From contig CAZZIG010000039.1 in the NCBI GenBank assembly GCA_964653975.1, positions 1-60,928 on the forward strand: DNA of 60,928 nucleotides. Reading direction: 5' to 3'. This document shows positions 10,858 through 34,643 of this stretch, piece by piece. The stretch comes from an uncultured Acidimicrobiaceae bacterium (lineage in GTDB: Bacteria; Actinomycetota; Acidimicrobiia; Spongiisociales; ZC4RG35). The notes beneath the pieces were generated by a model, which did not search any database, had not been told where the DNA came from, and was given only the letters and a program-made list of their open reading frames with translations. The translations under genes were made by a program, and so were the position numbers. Each line of letters starts with the position of its first letter. Positions within the stretch are counted from its first letter, which is position 1.

Positions 10858-10877
10858 ACTAACGAACGTTCGTTAGT
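10858..10877. promoter_or_regulatory. Perfect 20-bp palindrome, probable repressor operator (TetR-like)
   Basis: ACTAACGAACGTTCGTTAGT is its own reverse complement. It is AT-rich in a GC-rich background and lies between the DosR-like box and the RBS. Confidence 0.7.
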
Positions 10878-10913: not shown

Positions 10914-13900
10914 TTGCCCCAGGTCAGCAGACGTCAGTTCATCAAGATCGCAGGTGGTGCCGGTCTGGCCGCGATCTCGGGGGTGCTCGACCTCGAACTG
11001 TTGGCTCTCGAAGCCTTCCCCGGTGTCGACAACCCCCTCCTCACCTACCCCAACCGGGGTTGGGAGCAGATCTACAGAGACCAATATGCATATGACAGCA
11101 GTTTCACGGTCATCTGTGCCCCCAACGACACCCACATGTGTCGGCTCCGGGCCTTCTCCCGCAACGGGATAGTCACCCGTCTCGAACAGAACTACGACGG
11201 GGCCAACTATGCGGATCCCCAGGGCAATACCTCGACCGCACATTGGAACCCCCGGGGCTGTCTCAAGGGGTTCACGCTGCATCGACGGGTCTACGGGCCC
11301 TACCGACTGCGCGCCCCGATGGTCAGAAGCGGCTGGAAGGAGTGGGCCGACGACGGATTTCCCTCCCTCTCGGACGATCCGGACCTGAGAGCCCGGTATC
11401 GGTTCGACGACCGCGGGAACGACACGTTCATCCGGCTCACCTGGGACGAGGTCGACGACTATGCGGCGCGGGGATTGGAGGCGATCGCCCGCACCTACTC
11501 GGGAGACGATGGCCGACGCCGGCTCATCGATGAGGACGGCTATGAGCCCGAGATGCTCGAGTTCTGGGAGGGGTCGGGTGTCCGGACGATGAAGTTCGGG
11601 TCGTCGCTTCCGGTCCACGGTGTGGCGGGCAAGTTCGGGTTGTTCCGGTTCGCCAACATGCTGGCACTCCTCGACGCAGACGTACGCGGCGTGGGACCCG
11701 ATGAGGCGGTCGGCGCCAGAGACTGGTCGGAGTACACGTGGCGGGGAGATCAGGCGCCGGGGTTCCCGTTCGTGCACGGGCTCCAGACCTCGGAAGTCGA
11801 CTTCAACGACCTCCGCAAGAGCCGTCTCCTCATCCAGGTCGGCAAGAACCTGGTCGAGAACAAGATGCCGGAGAGCCATTGGTTCCAGGAGATCATCGAG
11901 CGTGGGGGCAAGATCGTCTCCATCGTCCCCGAGTACGGGCCCCAGTCGTCCAAGTCCGACTACTGGATCCCGGTGCGGGCCGGTCTCTCCGACACCGCCA
12001 TCTTTCTCTATCTGGCCAAGGAGCTCATCGATCGCGACCTCTACGACCTCGAGTTCGTGAAACGATTCACCGACCTGCCGCTCCTCATTCGTCTCGACGA
12101 CCTGACCCGCGTGCACGCCGGGGAGGTCTTCGCCGACCACGGGCCACTGCTCGATCCCGAGGGCCCCAGTTTCACCCTCCACGCCATGACCCCCGAGCAA
12201 TACGAGCAGATCGGCGACAGGGTGGTCAGAGACACCTCGGGTCAACTGCGCGCCATCAGCCGCGAGCACGTCGGAGATCGGCTGGCCGAGGCCGGAGTCG
12301 ATCCGGAGGTCGACTGGCGGGGAACGATCACCCTGGCCGACGGGTCGGAGGTCGAGGTGGCCACGGCGCTCAACCTCTACCGGGAGCATTTGGCCGACTA
12401 CGACGTCGACACGGTCGCCGACATCACCGGATCGCCCAAAGAGCTGTTGGAACAGCTCCTCGATGACGTCGCCACGATCCGGCCGATGTCGATTCAGGTC
12501 GGGGAGGGTGTCAACCACTACTTCCACGCCACCCTCCACAACCGGGCCACCTACATGGTCTCGATGCTCACCGGTCAGATCGGCATCCCCGGCTCGGGAG
12601 TCAGCACCTGGGCCGGCAACTACAAAGGGGGCATCTTCCATGCCGCCCCCTGGTTCGGGCCGGGCGTCGGCGGCTACGTGAACGAGGATCCGTTCAACCC
12701 GCTCCTGTCAGAGACGGACGCCTACGACTTCGACAACATCCACCACTACATCCATGGAGAGGAGACCTCCTACTGGGGCTACGGAGACCGCCCGCTGGTG
12801 GTGGACACTCCTACCGAAGGGCGGAAGGTGTTCACCGGGCGGACCCACATGCCCACCCCGACCAAGGTGCTCTGGTACAACAACGCCAACCTGATCAACC
12901 AGGCCAAGTGGGCCTATCACCTGATCAAGCACACCAACCCCAAGATCGACATGATCGTCGACCAGCAGATCGAGTGGACCGGGTCGGCAGAGTTCGCCGA
13001 CATCGTCCTACCGGCCAACAGCTGGCTGGAGTTCGAGACGCTCGAGATGGGCGGGTCGTGCTCCAACCCGTTCCTCCAACTCTGGAAAGGAGGCATCAGC
13101 CCCCTCTACGACAGCCGAGACGACGTGGCCATCTTCGCCGGTGTGGCGAGGGCCCTGGCCGGGCTCACCGGCGAGCCACGATTCGCCGACTACTTCAAGT
13201 TCGCCAGTGAAGGCCGACCGGAGGTGTATCTCGACCGGGTCCTGAAAGGCTCGTTCACCACCGAGGGCTACACCGTCGACGACATCATGTCGGGCAAATA
13301 CGGTGAGCCGGGCGGGGCACTGATGCAATACCGCACCTACCCCCGCATCCCGTTCTGGGAGCAGGTCAACGACAGTCTCCCGTTCTACACCGACACCGGC
13401 AGGCTGAACGCCTACTGCGACCTCCCCGAGGCCATCGAATATGGGGAGAATCTGATCGTCCATCGTGAGGCGGTTGAGGCCACTCCCTACCTCCCCAACG
13501 TCATCGTCTCCACCAGCCCCTGGATCCGGCCAAACGACTACGGCATCGACCCGGCCGACCTCGACGCCGACCGCCGCCAGGTGCGCAACATCAAGATGTC
13601 CTGGCCCGAGGTCCGCCGCACCGTCAACCCGCTGTTCGAGGAGGGATACCGCTTCCTCTGCCTCACTCCCAAGTCGCGGCACTCGGTTCACTCCTCCTGG
13701 GCGGTCACCGACTGGCACTGGATCTGGAACTCCAACTTCGGCGACCCCCACCGAACCGAGACCCGCATGCCGGGCGTGGGTGATGCCCAGCTCCACATGA
13801 GCCCCACCGATGCCCGCGGTCTCGGATTGGAGAGCGGCGACTGGGTATGGATCGATGCCAATCCCGCAGACCGCCCCTACGTCGGAGCCTCACCCGAAGA

Positions 13901-14378
13901 CCCCTTCTACGAGTCGGCCCGCCTCATGGCGAGGGTGACGTACAACCATTCGTACCCGCCCGGGGTCACCATGATCAAACACGCCTTTTACATGGCGACA
14001 CCGCGGACGGTTCGAGCACAGGAGAGCCGCGCCGACGGGCGCGCCCTGGCCGACACCGGCTACCAGTCGAGCTTCCGTCACGGCAGCCAGCAGTCGCTCA
14101 CCAGAGGCTGGGCACCGCCAATGCACCAGACCGACAGCCTCTTTCACAAGCGAGCCGCGGGGATGGGCTTCATCTTCGGCTTCGACGTCGACAACCACGC
14201 CATCAACACCGTCCCGAAGGAGACTCTGGTCCGGATCACCCTGGCGGAGCCGGGTGGTCTGGGAGGAAGAGGAGTCTGGTCGGGCGCCACGACGGGTCAC
14301 AGCCCGGGCGGCGAGTCGAAGTTCATGCAGCGTTACCTGGCCGGCCAGGTCGTCACCATCAAGGGAGCCGGCACATGA
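10914..14378 (+). CDS. nxrA: Tat-exported type II DMSO-reductase-family molybdoenzyme alpha subunit, anammox/Nitrospira NxrA-like (NXR/periplasmic NAR clade)
   Basis: TTG start; Tat motif VSRRQFI; FS0 motif C68-x3-D72-x3-C76...C116 (CAPNDTHMC...WNPRGCLKGFTLHRRVYGPYRL); Mo-ligand Asp in TWRGDQ (D279); GKNLVENKMPE, GEGVNHYFH, WAGNYK, TPKSRHSVHSSW. These match NxrA blocks recalled from Kuenenia/Nitrospira. The gene symbol marks family membership; the substrate is unproven. Confidence 0.88.
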   Translation: MPQVSRRQFIKIAGGAGLAAISGVLDLELLALEAFPGVDNPLLTYPNRGWEQIYRDQYAYDSSFTVICAPNDTHMCRLRAFSRNGIVTRLEQNYDGANYADPQGNTSTAHWNPRGCLKGFTLHRRVYGPYRLRAPMVRSGWKEWADDGFPSLSDDPDLRARYRFDDRGNDTFIRLTWDEVDDYAARGLEAIARTYSGDDGRRRLIDEDGYEPEMLEFWEGSGVRTMKFGSSLPVHGVAGKFGLFRFANMLALLDADVRGVGPDEAVGARDWSEYTWRGDQAPGFPFVHGLQTSEVDFNDLRKSRLLIQVGKNLVENKMPESHWFQEIIERGGKIVSIVPEYGPQSSKSDYWIPVRAGLSDTAIFLYLAKELIDRDLYDLEFVKRFTDLPLLIRLDDLTRVHAGEVFADHGPLLDPEGPSFTLHAMTPEQYEQIGDRVVRDTSGQLRAISREHVGDRLAEAGVDPEVDWRGTITLADGSEVEVATALNLYREHLADYDVDTVADITGSPKELLEQLLDDVATIRPMSIQVGEGVNHYFHATLHNRATYMVSMLTGQIGIPGSGVSTWAGNYKGGIFHAAPWFGPGVGGYVNEDPFNPLLSETDAYDFDNIHHYIHGEETSYWGYGDRPLVVDTPTEGRKVFTGRTHMPTPTKVLWYNNANLINQAKWAYHLIKHTNPKIDMIVDQQIEWTGSAEFADIVLPANSWLEFETLEMGGSCSNPFLQLWKGGISPLYDSRDDVAIFAGVARALAGLTGEPRFADYFKFASEGRPEVYLDRVLKGSFTTEGYTVDDIMSGKYGEPGGALMQYRTYPRIPFWEQVNDSLPFYTDTGRLNAYCDLPEAIEYGENLIVHREAVEATPYLPNVIVSTSPWIRPNDYGIDPADLDADRRQVRNIKMSWPEVRRTVNPLFEEGYRFLCLTPKSRHSVHSSWAVTDWHWIWNSNFGDPHRTETRMPGVGDAQLHMSPTDARGLGLESGDWVWIDANPADRPYVGASPEDPFYESARLMARVTYNHSYPPGVTMIKHAFYMATPRTVRAQESRADGRALADTGYQSSFRHGSQQSLTRGWAPPMHQTDSLFHKRAAGMGFIFGFDVDNHAINTVPKETLVRITLAEPGGLGGRGVWSGATTGHSPGGESKFMQRYLAGQVVTIKGAGT

Positions 14379-14626
14379 AGGCCGTCGAGTCCGGCGACCC
14401 GTTCGAGCTGGTCGGGGTGAGACGTCAGGTGGAGCCCAACCTCGAGACCGACACCGAGACCGCCCGTTGTCTCATCGAGGAGTACGCACTCGCCGGTTTC
14501 GCCGCCAACGAGATCCTGGACCTGTTCGCTTCGCCCGCCTATGGGATGCCAAACGCGATCTACCGGCGACGTGGGGCCGAGTTCGTGACCGGTCTCGTCG
14601 CGGGGGTCTTCGGAGGAGTGCGATGA
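14375..14626 (+). CDS. Small conserved-looking hypothetical protein (83 aa) between alpha and beta
   Basis: ATGA overlaps at both ends. [15 protein letters not shown]...[39 protein letters not shown]. It is the 3' part of track ORF 13847..14626. Confidence 0.8.
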
Positions 14627-15849
14627 CCACTGTGTACAACTGGCAGTTGGGGCGGGACATGGAATACCGCTTCGAGGGCGGCGGTGCCCGACGGCAGTTC
14701 GCCGCGGTGTTCAACATCAACCGCTGCATCGCCTGCCAGACCTGCACCATGGCCTGCCGGTCGACCTGGACCTTCTCCCCCGGGCAGGAGCTGATGTGGT
14801 GGAACAACGTCGAGACCAAGCCCTACGGCGGCTATCCCCGCCATTGGGACGTCAAGACGCTGGAGCTACTCGAGGGCGCCAACCCCGGTGGCCAGGTGTG
14901 GGACTACGGAGAACAGAGCGAAGATGCCCCCTACGGCACCTTCGAAGGCAAGACGATCTTCGAGGCCACCGACCCAGCCGAGCGCGCCGTCGGATACCTG
15001 CCGAGCGACGACGAGTGGAAAGCCCCCAATCGCTTCGAGGACCACGGGACCAAATGGTCGGCCAACGGAGCCAGTCTTCCCGAGCACGAAGGTTGGTTCT
15101 TCTATCTGGCGCGGATCTGCAATCACTGCACCTATCCGGCATGTCTCGCCGCCTGTCCCAGGAACGCCATCTACAAGCGACCGGAGGACGGGATCGTCCT
15201 CATCGACCAGGAACGATGCCGGGGATACCGCAAATGCGTCGAGGCCTGCCCCTACAAGAAGTCGATGTACCGGCCGACCACCGGGACGTCGGAGAAGTGC
15301 ATCGGGTGCTTCCCCCGCCAGGACGGCGACGACCCCCTGACCGAGGGACATCCGATGGAGGCCCGCTGCATGACAGCCTGCGTCGGCAAGATCCGAATGC
15401 AGGGGCTGGTCGATGTCGAAGCCGACGGAACCTGGACCGAAGACCCCGACCACCCCCTCTACTACCTCGTGCACGAAGAGCAGGTGGCCCTGCCCCTGTA
15501 CCCCCAATTCGGCACCCAGCCCAACATCTACTACATCCCGCCGCGCTGGGTCCCCCGCGACTATCTCCATCAGATGTTCGGCCCGGGTGTCGACCAGGCC
15601 ATCGAGCGCTACACGCGTCCCTCCCGCAGACTCCTCGCAGTCCTGCAGCTGTTCCGGGCCTCACAACAAATCATCTTCTCGTTCGACGTGGAGGAGGGGG
15701 AACAGGTGGGCGAGGTCCAGGTGGGTGGCGAGTCCTATGAGATCTTCAACGACACGGCCGTCGGATTCGACGCCGACGGACACGAGATCGTGCGCATCAG
15801 GGTCGAAGAGCCACTCCACGAGCGGCCCTTGAAGGTGAACTCGATATGA
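14623..15849 (+). CDS. nxrB: Fe-S beta subunit, NxrB/NarH-like (three 4Fe-4S plus one 3Fe-4S)
   Basis: [71 protein letters not shown]...[16 protein letters not shown]. 408 aa from the ATG at 14623. Confidence 0.93.
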
Positions 15850-16589
15850 CCCTCACAGCCAGTCGCGAGCACGATCTCATCCAGGCGACGGGCCGTTTCG
15901 GCATCTACTCCCTCCTGGCGACCGGATTCATGCTCCCGACCGAGAGTCGGCTCGAAGTCGTGGCATCGACGCTCCTCCCCGCGGTCTCCAAGCTCGACGT
16001 GGGAGTGGAGGTGGGCTCAGCGATCAAGCGTGTAGCAGAAGCGATGCCCCTCGGCGTCGGGAGCCTGCGCGGACACTTCATGGAGTTGTTCCCGCCGATT
16101 GCCTCCCAGGATGCGCCGGGATACGAGACCGGCTATCGAGGAGACGGGATCTTCCAGCAGTCGGCGATCATGGCCGACATCGCCGGCTTCTACCGGGCGC
16201 ACGGGCTTCAGTCCGGCGGCACCGAGCGGGAGCGTCCCGACCACATAACGGTGGAGCTGGAGTACATGGCCTTTGTCGCCAAGAAGGAGGCACTGGCGCT
16301 CCGCGAAGGCTCTCCGGACCACGCCGCCATCTGTCGGGACACGGCCTCCTCTTTCCTCCGCGACCACCTCGGCTGTTGGGGCCCCGCGTTCGGTCTGCGG
16401 GCACGCGCCGTCTCCTCGAGCCCCTGGTACTGGTCACTCGGTGAGTTGCTGGCACTGTGGATCGAGTGGGAGTTGGACGCCATGGGCATCGAGCCAGTGG
16501 AGGTCGTGGAGCACCCGCTGCCCCAGGAGCCCCCGGACGATGGGAGCTGTGGTCCCTGCCCGGTCCCCTCGCTCGGAGGTGGGGTATGA
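15846..16589 (+). CDS. TorD/DmsD/NarJ-family maturation chaperone
   Basis: YETGY, MADIAGFYRAHGL, ERPDHITVELEYM, FLRDHLGCW; C-terminal CGPC. Confidence 0.9.
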   Translation: MTLTASREHDLIQATGRFGIYSLLATGFMLPTESRLEVVASTLLPAVSKLDVGVEVGSAIKRVAEAMPLGVGSLRGHFMELFPPIASQDAPGYETGYRGDGIFQQSAIMADIAGFYRAHGLQSGGTERERPDHITVELEYMAFVAKKEALALREGSPDHAAICRDTASSFLRDHLGCWGPAFGLRARAVSSSPWYWSLGELLALWIEWELDAMGIEPVEVVEHPLPQEPPDDGSCGPCPVPSLGGGV

Positions 16590-17587
16590 GACTTCTCAGG
16601 TCGAAGCTCGCATTGTTCGTAGCCCTGGCTTTGATCTCCGTGCTACTGCGCGTCGCCGACGCCAACCCTGCGATGGCCCAGAACCCGTCGATCGGGGTTT
16701 GGAGCGTCGCCACGGCGCCACCGATGGACGGCTCGGCTCCCGAATGGCAGTCGATTCTGCCGGTCTTTCTGCCGACCACCTCACAGCAGGTGGCGCTGCC
16801 GATGGGAGGAGGCGCGATCGAACGTCTCGGGGTCAGGGCAGTGCATCACGACGAGCGTCTCTACGTGATGCTGGAGTGGTCGGACGGGACACTGGACGAG
16901 AGCACCGCTCTCCACGAGACGTTCACTGATGCTGCCGCCATCCAGTTCCCCGCCGAGGCGGGAGTCGAGGTACCCGCGATCTGCATGGGACAAGCAGACC
17001 AGGCGGTCAACATATGGCATTGGCGCGCCGACCAGCAGAACGACCCACCTGCTCTGTCCGAGCATGGCTACGTCGACTCCTATCCCTCCACCGATGACCT
17101 CTATTTCACGGCGCGCGCGGCAGGAAATCCCCTGGCGCGTGCCGACGGCCGCACCGGTGTGAGCAATCTCGTCGCCGGAGGTTTCGGCACACTCGAAATC
17201 GCCGACCAGGGGGGTCTCGACGGCCACGCCGTCCATGAGGGCGGTCGCTGGATGGTGGTGTTCACCAGACCCTTGGCCGCCGCGAGCGACATGCAACCCA
17301 CGATCGCCAACGGCCCCGTCGACGTCGCCTTCGCGATTTGGGACGGCAGCAAGCAAGAGCGAGACGGAATCAAGTCGGTGTCGGCGTTCACCCAGCTTCA
17401 GGTGACCCCAGAAGATCCGCCCCGGCGACCCGTGGCGGCCACCGCCGATTGGCCAGGGTACACGCCGTCCAACCCGATGCTCGTCGTCTCATATGGCTTC
17501 ATCGCATTGTTGGTTGCGGGGGCCTTGCTGATCTGGCGATACATGCGGAAAGGTGAAGGGGGCTCGGATGCCGAGAGTCCCGCATAG
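16586..17587 (+). CDS. Heme-b gamma subunit (EbdC/NxrC-like DOMON fold) with signal peptide and C-terminal TM anchor
   Basis: ATG at 16586 (ATGA overlap). Signal peptide; RLYVMLEWSD, FTDAAAIQFP, PAICMGQ (Met ligand), VNIWHWRA, W.VVFTRPL, AFAIWDGS.QERDGIKS (Lys ligand); TM MLVVSYGFIALLVAGALLIW followed by RYMRK. Confidence 0.85.
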   Translation: MRLLRSKLALFVALALISVLLRVADANPAMAQNPSIGVWSVATAPPMDGSAPEWQSILPVFLPTTSQQVALPMGGGAIERLGVRAVHHDERLYVMLEWSDGTLDESTALHETFTDAAAIQFPAEAGVEVPAICMGQADQAVNIWHWRADQQNDPPALSEHGYVDSYPSTDDLYFTARAAGNPLARADGRTGVSNLVAGGFGTLEIADQGGLDGHAVHEGGRWMVVFTRPLAAASDMQPTIANGPVDVAFAIWDGSKQERDGIKSVSAFTQLQVTPEDPPRRPVAATADWPGYTPSNPMLVVSYGFIALLVAGALLIWRYMRKGEGGSDAESPA

Positions 17588-18530
17588 CCCGGTTCCGCGG
17601 CACCTGACCGGCTGGCTCGGAGTCGTCGTCCTCGCCGAACTGGTGCTCTTGCGAACCGGCACCCGCACCCTCATCCACATCCCGGGGCTGGGTCGCTTCG
17701 ACACTTCCGTGGGGCTGCTGAGCGAGGTGGGGCGACTCGCCTACTACCTGGCAGTGGTGCTGGTCGTGGCTCTACTGGTCTACCTCGGCCACTCGATGTG
17801 GGTTAGCGGCACCATGGCGGGGAGGGCCCTCGCCGGCCTGGTTTCGGTCTTCGTCGTCACCGCGCTGCTGGGACGAGTGGGCGTGGTCACCGCCTCGACG
17901 GTTGCTTGGGTGTCGGTGGCGGTGTTGGTCGCGGTGTTGGCGATCACCTGGGGCGGGGTGCGCAGCGTGCCGGTGGCCGCCTTCGTCGCCGCCTCGGTAT
18001 CGGCTTCGTGGAGCATCCTGGGACAGGGGCTCGGGCCGGGGATCACGGGACGCACCGTGGACATCGCGGTGGTCGTCGCCGAAGGTCTGTTGCTCCTGGC
18101 ATTCGTGACCACTCCCCTCCTCGTCATCGGGAAGCTGACGACACCGGCCATGTTCGCGGGAATGGCCGCTTTCGCCCTGGTAGGCGCGGGATTCTGGGCG
18201 GGTGGCCCGACCCTCTCCATCCTGACGCTTTGGAATCTCGGAGTGCCCGGCTGGTTCTCCCCGATCGTCTACGGGCTCGCCTTCGGGGGCTTGGTGGTCG
18301 CCATATGGTCGGCCTCGACCCGCCGCCAGGTCGCGATCACCACCGGTCTCCTCCTGATGGTCGCCGGAGGGGTGGGGCCGATCAGCACCTATCAAACCGC
18401 CCTGGCCTTGACCGCGGTGACCCTCATCGGGCTGGCTGTAGACGCGCGCGACATCGACTCGGTTCCCGGAAGCGAGCAAGAGGCGTCAGACCCCTCCGAG
18501 TCGAGCAGGGACCTCCTCTCTCTCACGTGA
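17568..18530 (+). CDS. Polytopic membrane protein of unknown function, last gene of the molybdoenzyme operon
   Basis: 320 aa, almost entirely hydrophobic (about 9-10 TM segments); overlaps the gamma gene by 20 nt; no family motif recognised. Confidence 0.75.
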   Translation: MPRVPHSPVPRHLTGWLGVVVLAELVLLRTGTRTLIHIPGLGRFDTSVGLLSEVGRLAYYLAVVLVVALLVYLGHSMWVSGTMAGRALAGLVSVFVVTALLGRVGVVTASTVAWVSVAVLVAVLAITWGGVRSVPVAAFVAASVSASWSILGQGLGPGITGRTVDIAVVVAEGLLLLAFVTTPLLVIGKLTTPAMFAGMAAFALVGAGFWAGGPTLSILTLWNLGVPGWFSPIVYGLAFGGLVVAIWSASTRRQVAITTGLLLMVAGGVGPISTYQTALALTAVTLIGLAVDARDIDSVPGSEQEASDPSESSRDLLSLT

Positions 18531-18720: not shown

Positions 18721-19809
18721 GTGACCCGCACAACGGTCAGTTCCGACGATCAGGCGGTCCTTGGCCGTCTCTCCCGTCTCGACCGGTTCCTCCCGGTTTG
18801 GATCGGACTGGCCATGGCGGCCGGGCTTCTCCTCGGAACCCTGCGACCCGACCTGAACGACTGGCTGGACACGGTGGAGATCGGAAGTGTGTCACTACCC
18901 ATCGCCATTGGGCTGCTGGCGATGATGTACCCGGTGCTCGCCAAGGTCAGGTACTCCCAGATCGGCGAGATCGCCGCCGATCGCAAGCTCCTGGTCAACT
19001 CGCTGATCCTCAACTGGCTGCTCGGGCCGCTGCTCATGTTCACCCTTGCCTGGCTCATGCTGCCCGACCTACCCGAGTACCGCACCGGTCTCATCATCAT
19101 CGGGCTCGCCCGATGCATCGCGATGGTGCTCATCTGGAACGACATCGCATGTGGGGACCGGGAAGCGGCAGCTGTGCTCGTGGCGATCAACTCGGTGTTT
19201 CAGATCGTGGCCTACTCATTGCTTGGGTACTTCTACCTCGAGCTACTGCCAGACTGGCTGGGGCTGGACACCGCGAGTCTCGACGTGTCGATGTGGGAGA
19301 TCGGAAGGATCGTCCTCATCTTCTTGGGTATCCCCCTGGTGGCCGGGTACCTGACCCGTCGTTGGGGGGAACGGTCCAGAGGCGTCGAGTGGTACGAGAC
19401 CAGGTTCATCCCCAAGATCGCTCCCTGGGCGCTCTACGGTCTGCTCTTCACAGTTGTCATCCTCTTCGCCCTCCAGGGCGAGACCATTACCAGCCAGCCG
19501 CTCGATGTCGTGCGCATCGCTCTCCCGCTCCTGGCGTACTTCCTCCTGATGTGGGGGCTCGCCTTTGCACTGGGGCTGAGACTCCGGCTGTCGTATCCGA
19601 AGAACACTGCGATGAGCTTCACCGCGGCGAGCAACAACTTCGAGCTGGCGATCGCCGTCGCCATCGGGGTGTTTGGCGTCACCTCGGGTGAGGCCCTTGC
19701 CGGAGTCGTCGGACCGCTGATCGAGGTACCAGTGCTCGTGGGGCTCGTCTACGTCGCCCTCTGGGCCCGCCGTCGCTTCTACCCCAGCCAAGACCCGGAG
19801 GGACCATGA
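18721..19809 (+). CDS. acr3: Acr3 family arsenite efflux transporter
   Basis: LSRLDRFLPVWI, GLLAMMYPVLAKV, GLARCIAMV, SNNFELAIAVAI, VGPLIEVPVL. Confidence 0.95.
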   Translation: MTRTTVSSDDQAVLGRLSRLDRFLPVWIGLAMAAGLLLGTLRPDLNDWLDTVEIGSVSLPIAIGLLAMMYPVLAKVRYSQIGEIAADRKLLVNSLILNWLLGPLLMFTLAWLMLPDLPEYRTGLIIIGLARCIAMVLIWNDIACGDREAAAVLVAINSVFQIVAYSLLGYFYLELLPDWLGLDTASLDVSMWEIGRIVLIFLGIPLVAGYLTRRWGERSRGVEWYETRFIPKIAPWALYGLLFTVVILFALQGETITSQPLDVVRIALPLLAYFLLMWGLAFALGLRLRLSYPKNTAMSFTAASNNFELAIAVAIGVFGVTSGEALAGVVGPLIEVPVLVGLVYVALWARRRFYPSQDPEGP

Positions 19810-34566: not shown

Positions 34567-34643
34567 TGGTCGGGACGGTCGGATTTGAACCGACGACCTC
34601 AGCGTCCCGAACGCTGCGCGCTACCAAACTGCGCTACGTCCCG
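34567..34643 (-). tRNA. tRNA-Pro (anticodon CGG)
   Basis: CGGGACGTAGCGCAGTTTGGTAGCGCGCAGCGTTCGGGACGCTGAGGTCGTCGGTTCAAATCCGACCGTCCCGACCA: full cloverleaf, anticodon loop TTCGGGA, encoded CCA. Confidence 0.97.

Follow-up and report, generated by a model that had tools for sequence, protein, structure and literature searches.

A predicted NXR-type operon on contig CAZZIG010000039.1 carries the active-site signature of an apparently undescribed sister class

The nxrA-like gene and its product

The stretch of DNA analysed here (the window) comprises 60,928 nucleotides (61 kb) of contig CAZZIG010000039.1, positions 1 to 60,928 of the forward strand. It holds an operon whose first gene, nxrA-like, is predicted to encode the catalytic subunit of an enzyme resembling the nitrite oxidoreductase (NXR) of Kuenenia stuttgartiensis, and the residues around the molybdenum (Mo) ligand of this subunit are the subject of this work. 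Relatives of the protein fall into two classes, named after the residues found six (-6) and two (-2) positions before the Mo-ligand Asp: Glu and Arg (E/R), as in the window, or Asn and His (N/H), as in Kuenenia. The gene and three of its segments are as follows.

10914..14378 (+): nxrA-like catalytic subunit, TTG start, 1154 amino acids (aa), E/R class, predicted to bind molybdenum bis(molybdopterin guanine dinucleotide) (Mo-bisMGD) and the [4Fe-4S] cluster FS0
11589..11621 (+): segment 1, residues 226-236, MKFGSSLPVHG, located by alignment to Kuenenia NxrA
11724..11753 (+): segment 2, residues 271-280, WSEYTWRGDQ, with E273 at the putative gate position (-6), R277 at -2 and the Mo ligand D279
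12885..12968 (+): segment 3, residues 658-685, with A658, Q663 and Q685 facing Kuenenia V654, N659 and D681, the last a conserved acid that is lost

The peptides of segments 1 and 2 had been singled out from the sequence alone as departures from the Kuenenia peptides FKGRGGMGLLG and WSNYTWHGDQ. Both lie in the open reading frame (ORF) 10914..14378, and these Kuenenia peptides are indeed those paired with them in the alignment to 7B04_B; the interval proposed for the change, 11592-11753, ends correctly and starts one codon late, segment 1 beginning at 11589. The codons of E273, R277 and D279 occupy positions 11730-11732, 11742-11744 and 11748-11750, respectively.

In a HMMER alignment to solved structures, the protein matches 7B04_B (Kuenenia stuttgartiensis NxrA) over its full length with 1524 bits and 56% identity, and its AlphaFold2 (AF2) model superposes on that chain at TM 0.93/0.95. 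D279 pairs with Asp275 of 7B04_B, the Mo ligand of Kuenenia NxrA according to the structure paper (PMC8387239), and with Asp170 of 4YDD_A; the same Asp is invariant in 242 of 242 representatives. The changes thus flank the Mo ligand, as had been claimed for E273 at -6 and R277 at -2. N71 and D72 pair with Kuenenia Asn70, which faces the substrate, and Asp71, an unusual FS0 ligand (PMC8387239). The FS0 ligands C68, D72, C76 and C116 (three Cys and one Asp) and the substrate-facing Asn71 are all invariant. Residues 5-11 (SRRQFIK) form a twin-arginine (Tat) signal; the motif is kept in homologues, and the PF10518 match to it is weak (19.6 bits). A molybdopterin oxidoreductase domain is recognised by Pfam, and the top NCBIfam match is the type II dimethyl sulfoxide (DMSO) reductase alpha subfamily, far under any equivalog cut-off.

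The cofactor-free AF2 model (m30b5479e6750) has a predicted local distance difference test score (pLDDT) of 83.5 and a predicted TM score (pTM) of 0.86. Values below 50 are observed for residues 275-283, 285-295, 313-319, 534-537, 567-569, 922-943, 1070-1077 and 1092-1101, stretches that take in most of the segments lining the cofactors and the active site; the N-terminal signal region is of low confidence too. A prediction of this kind is least reliable at the active site, with the local geometry beyond its reach. Reading that geometry from the model was therefore dropped, given pLDDT <50 in cofactor-lining stretches including 275-283, and no distances were obtained.

The two-class signature

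Among 432 full-length relatives, 279 are of the E/R and 153 of the N/H form, with zero mixed forms; a further 9 sequences are outgroups. The best 120 homologues (63-100% identity) carry SEYTWRGDQ together with GS[SA]LPxHG in 118 cases, the remaining two being N/H with RGGMGLLG. A genome scan in which each species was represented by a single genome yielded relatives in at least 593 stretches, and the best 80 of these loci comprise 46 E/R and 34 N/H operons. The metagenome-assembled genomes (MAGs) with E/R loci are labelled as Acidimicrobiia and other Actinomycetota, Dehalococcoidia, Thermoflexaceae, Limnocylindria, Beta- and Gammaproteobacteria, Acidobacteriota, Methylomirabilota, Binatia, Planctomycetota and Kiritimatiellia.

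A column-by-column comparison of the two clades gives 11 fixed differences in 1154 residues. Five belong to segment 1 (window/Kuenenia: G229/R225, S230/G226, L232/M228, P233/G229 and H235/L231), F241/Y237 lies just 3' of it, and the others are E273/N269, R277/H273, A658/V654, Q663/N659 and Q685/D681. The class patterns, E/R with G[SCA][SNCA]LPxH and N/H with RGGMG[LIV]x, make the signature perfectly diagnostic, separating E/R with GSSLPxH from N/H with RGGMGLL. No description of it was found in the searched literature, nor do the texts searched contain the peptide strings.

The differences between the classes are localised in the stretch ahead of the Mo ligand. At the 388 sites conserved to at least 90% in each class, 15 differ, and 8 of these 15 fall within residues 229-277, which hold 24 of the 388 sites (hypergeometric P = 3e-7, with the residue range chosen post hoc). 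This agrees with the sequence-only reading, which had described a local change amid conserved blocks. Its statement that two charges were added holds for the gain of Glu273 and Arg277, but these are offset by the loss of Arg225 (to Gly) and Asp681 (to Gln). The E/R class likewise gains His235 and loses His273 (Kuenenia numbering for the latter), so that the signature positions contain one Arg, one His and one acid in each class.

Phylogeny and polarity

A neighbour-joining tree was calculated for 251 representatives (<85% identical) over 1132 columns with 100 bootstraps. Kuenenia is the only cultured nitrite oxidiser covered; Nitrospira, Nitrospina, Nitrotoga and Thermogutta sequences are absent from the data set. 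The E/R proteins form one clade (131 representatives, bootstrap 100), and the N/H proteins, Kuenenia included, form its sister (111 representatives, bootstrap 90). The stems of both clades are short, 0.05 and 0.04 substitutions per site. The window protein sits within the E/R clade, outside the clade holding the biochemically proven Kuenenia NXR, and belongs to a subclade with the extended motif ...GDQAPGF (59 representatives, bootstrap 100). The sister clade that had been suspected from the sequence is thus recovered.

The split between the classes is independent of the signature columns themselves: it is retained in 51 of 60 replicates after deletion of the 11 fixed columns, and in 49 of 60 after deletion of residues 222-246 and 266-292. 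It is lost (40/100) once about 100 columns are removed, namely every signature, near-fixed and segment column, which we regard as over-pruning of a short stem.

In the nearest outgroups, SAR202/Chloroflexota and Gaiellaceae proteins of 43-45% identity, -6 is N and -2 is H, segment 1 contains RGGM, and the Asp681 position is acidic. It follows that the E/R states are derived, with a single origin. Outgroups further away show E or F at -6 and Y at -2, with F/Y in NarG-like sequences. Two outgroups (P0123 and P0124) were considered as Nitrospira- or Nitrotoga-type sequences and rejected as such, their cluster names being those of SAR202/Chloroflexota and Gaiellaceae MAGs. Taken by their sequences, the E/R proteins constitute a large, derived and apparently undescribed sister class of NXR-type enzymes.

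The gate and the substrate tunnel

The mutationally tested substrate gate of the perchlorate reductase PcrA is formed by Phe164, Tyr165 and Trp461 (precursor Phe192, Tyr193 and Trp489), according to the passage of PMC8301774 that cites Youngblut 2016; the title of PDB entry 5CH7 was used alongside it for the assignment. In the alignment to PcrA, Phe164 pairs with E273, Tyr165 with Y274, Tyr168 with R277, Asp170 with D279 and Trp461 with Y570. Since E273 pairs with the gate residue Phe164, a location at the substrate gate is plausible, and to this extent the placement of the change in a substrate funnel, as first proposed, is upheld.

Published accounts place Asn70, Asp71, Asp275, Asn312, Glu527 and Lys917 close to the active site in Kuenenia (PMC8387239; PMC12300631), to which may be added His531, judged by alignment offsets to be presumably the equivalent of NarG His546. 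All seven (N70, D71, D275, N312, E527, H531 and K917) are invariant or nearly so in the 131 E/R and 111 N/H representatives. Two of the three residues reported at the Kuenenia tunnel mouth, Asp611 and Glu1088, differ by class. Asp611 is replaced by Gly in 113 of the 131 E/R representatives (window residue 615, nt 12756-12758), and Glu1088, present in 111 of 111 N/H representatives, becomes Asp or Ala in E/R (window residue 1091, nt 14184-14186).

The operon and its neighbours in the window

The nxrA-like gene is followed by an 83-aa ORF, nxrB, nxrD, nxrC and a membrane protein gene in a tightly coupled order, and an arsenite transporter gene lies beyond them:

14375..14626 (+): small ORF of 83 aa, conserved, lying between nxrA and nxrB; start codon and nxrA stop overlap in ATGA
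14617..15849 (+): nxrB-like iron-sulfur subunit, 410 aa, 579 bits to 7B04_A
15846..16589 (+): nxrD, TorD/NarJ-type chaperone (PF02613, TIGR03482)
16586..17587 (+): nxrC-like haem b subunit carrying an EB_dh domain; signal peptide at the N-terminus, membrane helix at the C-terminus
17553..18530 (+): multi-pass membrane protein, 325 aa, directly after nxrC
18721-19809 (+): ACR3-family arsenite efflux transporter (TIGR00832, 443 bits, above cut-off), 190 bp 3' of the operon

The 83-aa ORF overlaps both of its neighbours, nxrA and nxrB. It has no match in Pfam or NCBIfam, and homologues of 83-134 aa with the motif DP.ELVGV ... CLIEEY occupy the equivalent position in 31 of 76 loci, in both classes. 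The ATG of nxrC at 16586 shares bases with the nxrD stop, and GGAGGTGGGG precedes it. The NxrC-like subunit scores 81 bits against Kuenenia NxrC and retains the haem ligands (Met155/Lys305).

The best subfamily matches of the operon subunits are TIGR03479, TIGR03478, TIGR03477 and TIGR03482; the alpha, beta and chaperone scores are well under the curated cut-offs, and that of the haem b subunit is just under (165.4 vs 169.85). Fer4_11, EB_dh and Nitrate_red_del are the Pfam domains of the operon. The traits of type II DMSO reductases are all found: the FS0 motif, a beta subunit with four iron-sulfur clusters, an EB_dh haem b gamma subunit and a TorD/NarJ chaperone.

The 325-aa membrane protein has no family match and is kept directly after nxrC in 17 loci, 14 of them E/R. 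E29, R34, R38, H42, E177, W227 and N228 are among the residues invariant in its homologues. A different membrane protein, similar and likewise without family assignment, takes the place after the operon in 8 N/H loci. It is possible that the 325-aa protein is the membrane partner of the complex.

Upstream, the operon adjoins an ABC (ATP-binding cassette) transporter permease gene. About 40 bp 5' of the nxrA start, at 10859-10876, lies a perfect 18-bp palindrome, CTAACGAACGTTCGTTAG, which by its sequence looks like an operator; among the related loci, a similar sequence near the nxrA start occurs in one only (L005).

The rest of the window holds ordinary chromosomal content: ABC and TRAP (tripartite ATP-independent periplasmic) transporters, Trk/Kdp potassium genes, dnaX, murJ, thiolase, glpX, and an aspartate kinase with a dehydrogenase. 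No other nitrogen-cycle or carbon-fixation genes were found across the 61 kb. The nearest homologous proteins come from Acidimicrobiia MAGs, and the host is most likely an Acidimicrobiia bacterium.

Genomic context of related loci

In 76 loci of both classes the same arrangement is observed, A-(small ORF)-B-D-C followed by a membrane protein without family assignment. MobB-FmdE, Rrf2 regulators and NirJ/AhbD-like radical SAM (S-adenosylmethionine) proteins are accessory genes common to both classes. The recurrent neighbours of the 46 E/R operons are MobB-FmdE (Mo cofactor), the NirJ/AhbD-like radical SAM proteins, ArsR-type and Rrf2 regulators, c-type cytochromes and cytochrome bd subunit I. 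Chlorite dismutase is not in the 25 most frequent families among the 150 neighbours of these operons, nor are selenium- or halogen-related genes or other markers of oxyanion pathways.

The closest ortholog in the genome scan (best 80 of at least 593 loci) is L001, with 87% identity. At this locus (L001:1183-6385), a QmoC-like membrane protein is encoded directly 5' of nxrA, together with a NasC-like assimilatory nitrate reductase (799 bits) and a membrane protein of the HPP family; the HPP family contains known nitrite transporters. The context lends weak support to nitrogen oxyanions and none to another substrate. An arsenic substrate, considered in view of the ACR3 gene, was rejected, ACR3 being absent from the recurrent neighbour families elsewhere and ArsR-type helix-turn-helix domains, found upstream in 5 E/R loci, being generic.

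The E/R set also includes the Planctomycetota MAG OFTM248 (PMC10732223) and the Methylomirabilota MAG nzgw240 (L037). The latter carries an E/R-class operon, and its nxrAB have been reported as transcribed at a dysoxic groundwater site (PMC9562985). An E/R-class operon is further present on a 10.8-kb contig labelled 'uncultured Nitrospina sp.' (L063:2095-9696), where a c-type cytochrome domain forms a fusion with NxrC (502 aa). The protein's cluster has one member that is found on 155 contigs, and Tara Oceans (mesopelagic) sequences belong to the cluster. The host of this locus is uncertain. An E/R-class NXR in Nitrospina would have refuted the proposal of a different substrate, but assignment of the locus as a canonical Nitrospina NXR was rejected: its near relatives carry the labels Gammaproteobacteria or Planctomycetota, it shares 57% identity with Kuenenia vs the published 62% for N. 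gracilis, the gene order is A-B-D-cytochrome c::C vs the published nxrABC, and the contig is merely 10.8 kb long.

Comparison with characterised enzymes

The A, B and C subunits of the window operon are homologous to those of Kuenenia NXR-ABC (7B04; Chicano et al. 2021, PMC8387239), with 1524, 579 and 81 bits, respectively. The two enzymes have in common the Tat signal, the Mo-ligand Asp, Asn70, the FS0 set of three Cys and one Asp, and the Met/Lys haem b, and each cluster contains a TorD-type chaperone. They differ in the 11 fixed substitutions, N269E and H273R included and with RGGMGLL changed to GSSLPxH, in D611G and E1088D at the tunnel mouth, and in the C-terminal membrane helix carried by the NxrC of the window. 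Neither gene flanking the operon resembles the tubule-forming NXR-T of Kuenenia, as judged without an NXR-T sequence for comparison.

The periplasmic NXR of Nitrospira and Nitrospina (Lucker et al. 2010, 2013) is of the same family by published phylogeny and has the periplasmic orientation; in contrast to these organisms, the window shows no sign of a nitrifier genome context. Published NxrA identities among proven nitrite oxidisers are 54-62%, those between Nitrospina and Nitrospira being 54-55% (PMC3578206). The identity between the window protein and Kuenenia is as high as the latter, and therefore counts in favour of an NXR-type enzyme.

Other type II enzymes are more remote. PcrAB (4YDD, 5CH7; Youngblut et al. 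2016) has the same fold (TM 0.63/0.80), the Asp ligand and gate positions that align, but PcrA is 20% identical to the window protein, and Glu and Tyr take the place of the gate Phe and Trp (Glu273/Tyr274/Tyr570). With this aromatic gate replaced, and with chlorite dismutase missing from the recurrent neighbour families, the enzyme does not conform to a perchlorate or chlorate reductase. Escherichia coli NarGHI (1Q16) belongs to the same superfamily and shares the substrate pair, the Asp ligand, the equivalent of Asn70 (Asn52) and, presumably, that of His531 (His546). It differs in identity (NarG about 15%), in being cytoplasmic without Tat export of an active periplasmic enzyme, in a His ligand of FS0 where the window has Asp, in the dihaem subunit NarI where the window has an EB_dh haem b, and in Phe at -6 and Tyr at -2 where the window has Glu and Arg. 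Membership of the membrane-bound NarG family is not indicated either (TIGR01580, 141 bits vs a cut-off of 1084). EbdA is 17% identical to the window NxrA.

In the literature, the NXR clade of anammox bacteria, Nitrospira and Nitrospina is recognised together with a growing set of NXR-like genes in other phyla, and such non-classical genes are usually scored as nxrA or as 'potential novel nitrifiers' (PMC9562985, PMC10732223, PMC10359470, PMC11411797).

Substrate and direction of the reaction

The window operon probably encodes an NXR-type nitrite/nitrate oxidoreductase with a re-wired gate and second shell, and perhaps with changed kinetics or a changed direction. Judged by homology, nitrite/nitrate is most likely the substrate of the E/R enzyme. 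The complex, belonging to the family of type II DMSO reductases, would be exported by the Tat pathway and face the periplasm, and would still interconvert nitrite and nitrate at the Mo-bisMGD centre, with electrons passing via FS0-FS4 to haem b. The E/R signature would then represent one concerted, charge-neutral re-wiring, in which (Kuenenia numbering) the Arg moves from 225 to 273, the His from 273 to 231 and the acid from 681 to 269. Their perfect co-variation suggests that the signature positions contact one another. Such a re-wiring would be more likely to shift affinity, pH dependence or the preferred direction than the identity of the substrate.

Several points weigh against this interpretation. 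The searched literature yielded no characterised E/R-class enzyme, and turnover of nitrite/nitrate is assumed from homology. The E/R state is a derived departure at very conserved positions, one of them at the gate, which is how a change of specificity would appear. The tunnel-mouth residues D611 (to G) and E1088 (to D or A) differ too. The proximity of the 11 positions is presumed, with AF2 pLDDT <50 at residues 275-283, and the nitrogen-oxyanion context is thin, consisting of one locus (L001) with NasC/HPP.

The substrates might also be the same and the role opposite, the E/R enzymes serving mainly as periplasmic respiratory nitrate reductases (pNar-like) of facultative heterotrophs; this is a serious possibility, although not one that we expect to hold. 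The window does resemble the chromosome of a heterotroph (sugar-type and TRAP transporters, thiolase), with no carbon-fixation or other nitrification genes found in its 61 kb, and Kuenenia NXR is bidirectional (PMC8387239). The gate triad Glu/Tyr/Tyr of the E/R class contains one Glu, and NarG has been reported, in a passage of PMC8301774, to have a Glu at the position of PcrA Trp489, at which the N/H class has none. The family further includes nitrate reducers, Thermogutta terrifontis (PMC10732223) and Ca. Methanoperedens (PMC5673643), but these enzymes are placed by family and not by E/R or N/H class. Against such a role, a high potential is associated with Met/Lys haem b in NXR and in ethylbenzene dehydrogenase (PMC8387239), and no quinol-oxidising partner is recognisable in the operon, where the membrane protein downstream lacks a family match and contains a single invariant His.

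It is rather doubtful that two active-site classes of differing chemistry make up the periplasmic 'NXR' family, the E/R class being the one that would have another substrate or an obligate non-nitrite-oxidising direction. The consequences would be considerable, since E/R enzymes are widespread (Acidimicrobiia, Chloroflexota, Planctomycetota, Methylomirabilota and others) and are routinely counted as nxrA in metagenomes: a large share of the environmental 'nxrA' signal would be misassigned. Estimates of metagenomic nitrite-oxidation potential would need revision if the classes differ in direction, affinity or substrate. If they do not differ, the signature exemplifies a concerted, charge-conserving re-wiring of a metalloenzyme pocket. 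It also offers a handle for separate annotation, for the choice of enzymes to characterise and for the design of swap mutants.

The sequence-only reading had favoured a substrate other than nitrite/nitrate, and in this form (another oxyanion such as chlorate, perchlorate, selenate or iodate, or a small molecule, with the specificity created by Glu273/Arg277) we consider the proposal unlikely. E273 does occupy the position of the PcrA gate residue Phe164, at which the nature of the residue governs how perchlorate reductase handles its substrate; the E/R states are derived, hold without exception in the 131 representatives and never combine with those of N/H; the differences cluster beside the Mo ligand and the acids of the tunnel mouth are changed; and Met/Lys haem b suits any high-potential couple. 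However, every first-shell residue named in the literature is conserved and the change in charge is compensated. The class stems are short (0.04-0.05 substitutions per site), identity to proven NXR is 56-63%, and type II enzymes known to act on other substrates lie much further away (PcrA 20%, EbdA 17%). Chlorite dismutase and selenium or halogen genes are not among the 25 most frequent families by the 46 E/R operons, and the ACR3 gene of the window is not in the recurrent neighbour families of other loci. Positive support for a different substrate is thus lacking, with conserved active-site residues, balanced charges and a shared operon and context; a new specificity for the E/R class is possible.

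That the signature is a functionally silent lineage marker, its compensated substitutions fixed once on a short stem with catalysis unaffected, is quite improbable: the single origin, the perfect co-variation and the kept counts of charges and residue types would suit it, as would the report that one of five predicted nitrite/nitrate-binding NxrA residues differs from one proven nitrite oxidiser to another, and even between copies within a single genome (Nitrotoga preprint, bioRxiv 10.1101/317552; alignment column not established), but both versions are invariant over hundreds of species in many phyla after horizontal spread, so that each configuration appears to be under strong purifying selection, and one signature site is the gate position.

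Other features of the window

Between 32.5 and 34.9 kb no ORF passed the codon-bias filter. This interval surrounds a single tRNA gene at 34570-34643 (-), the sole Rfam match within the window.

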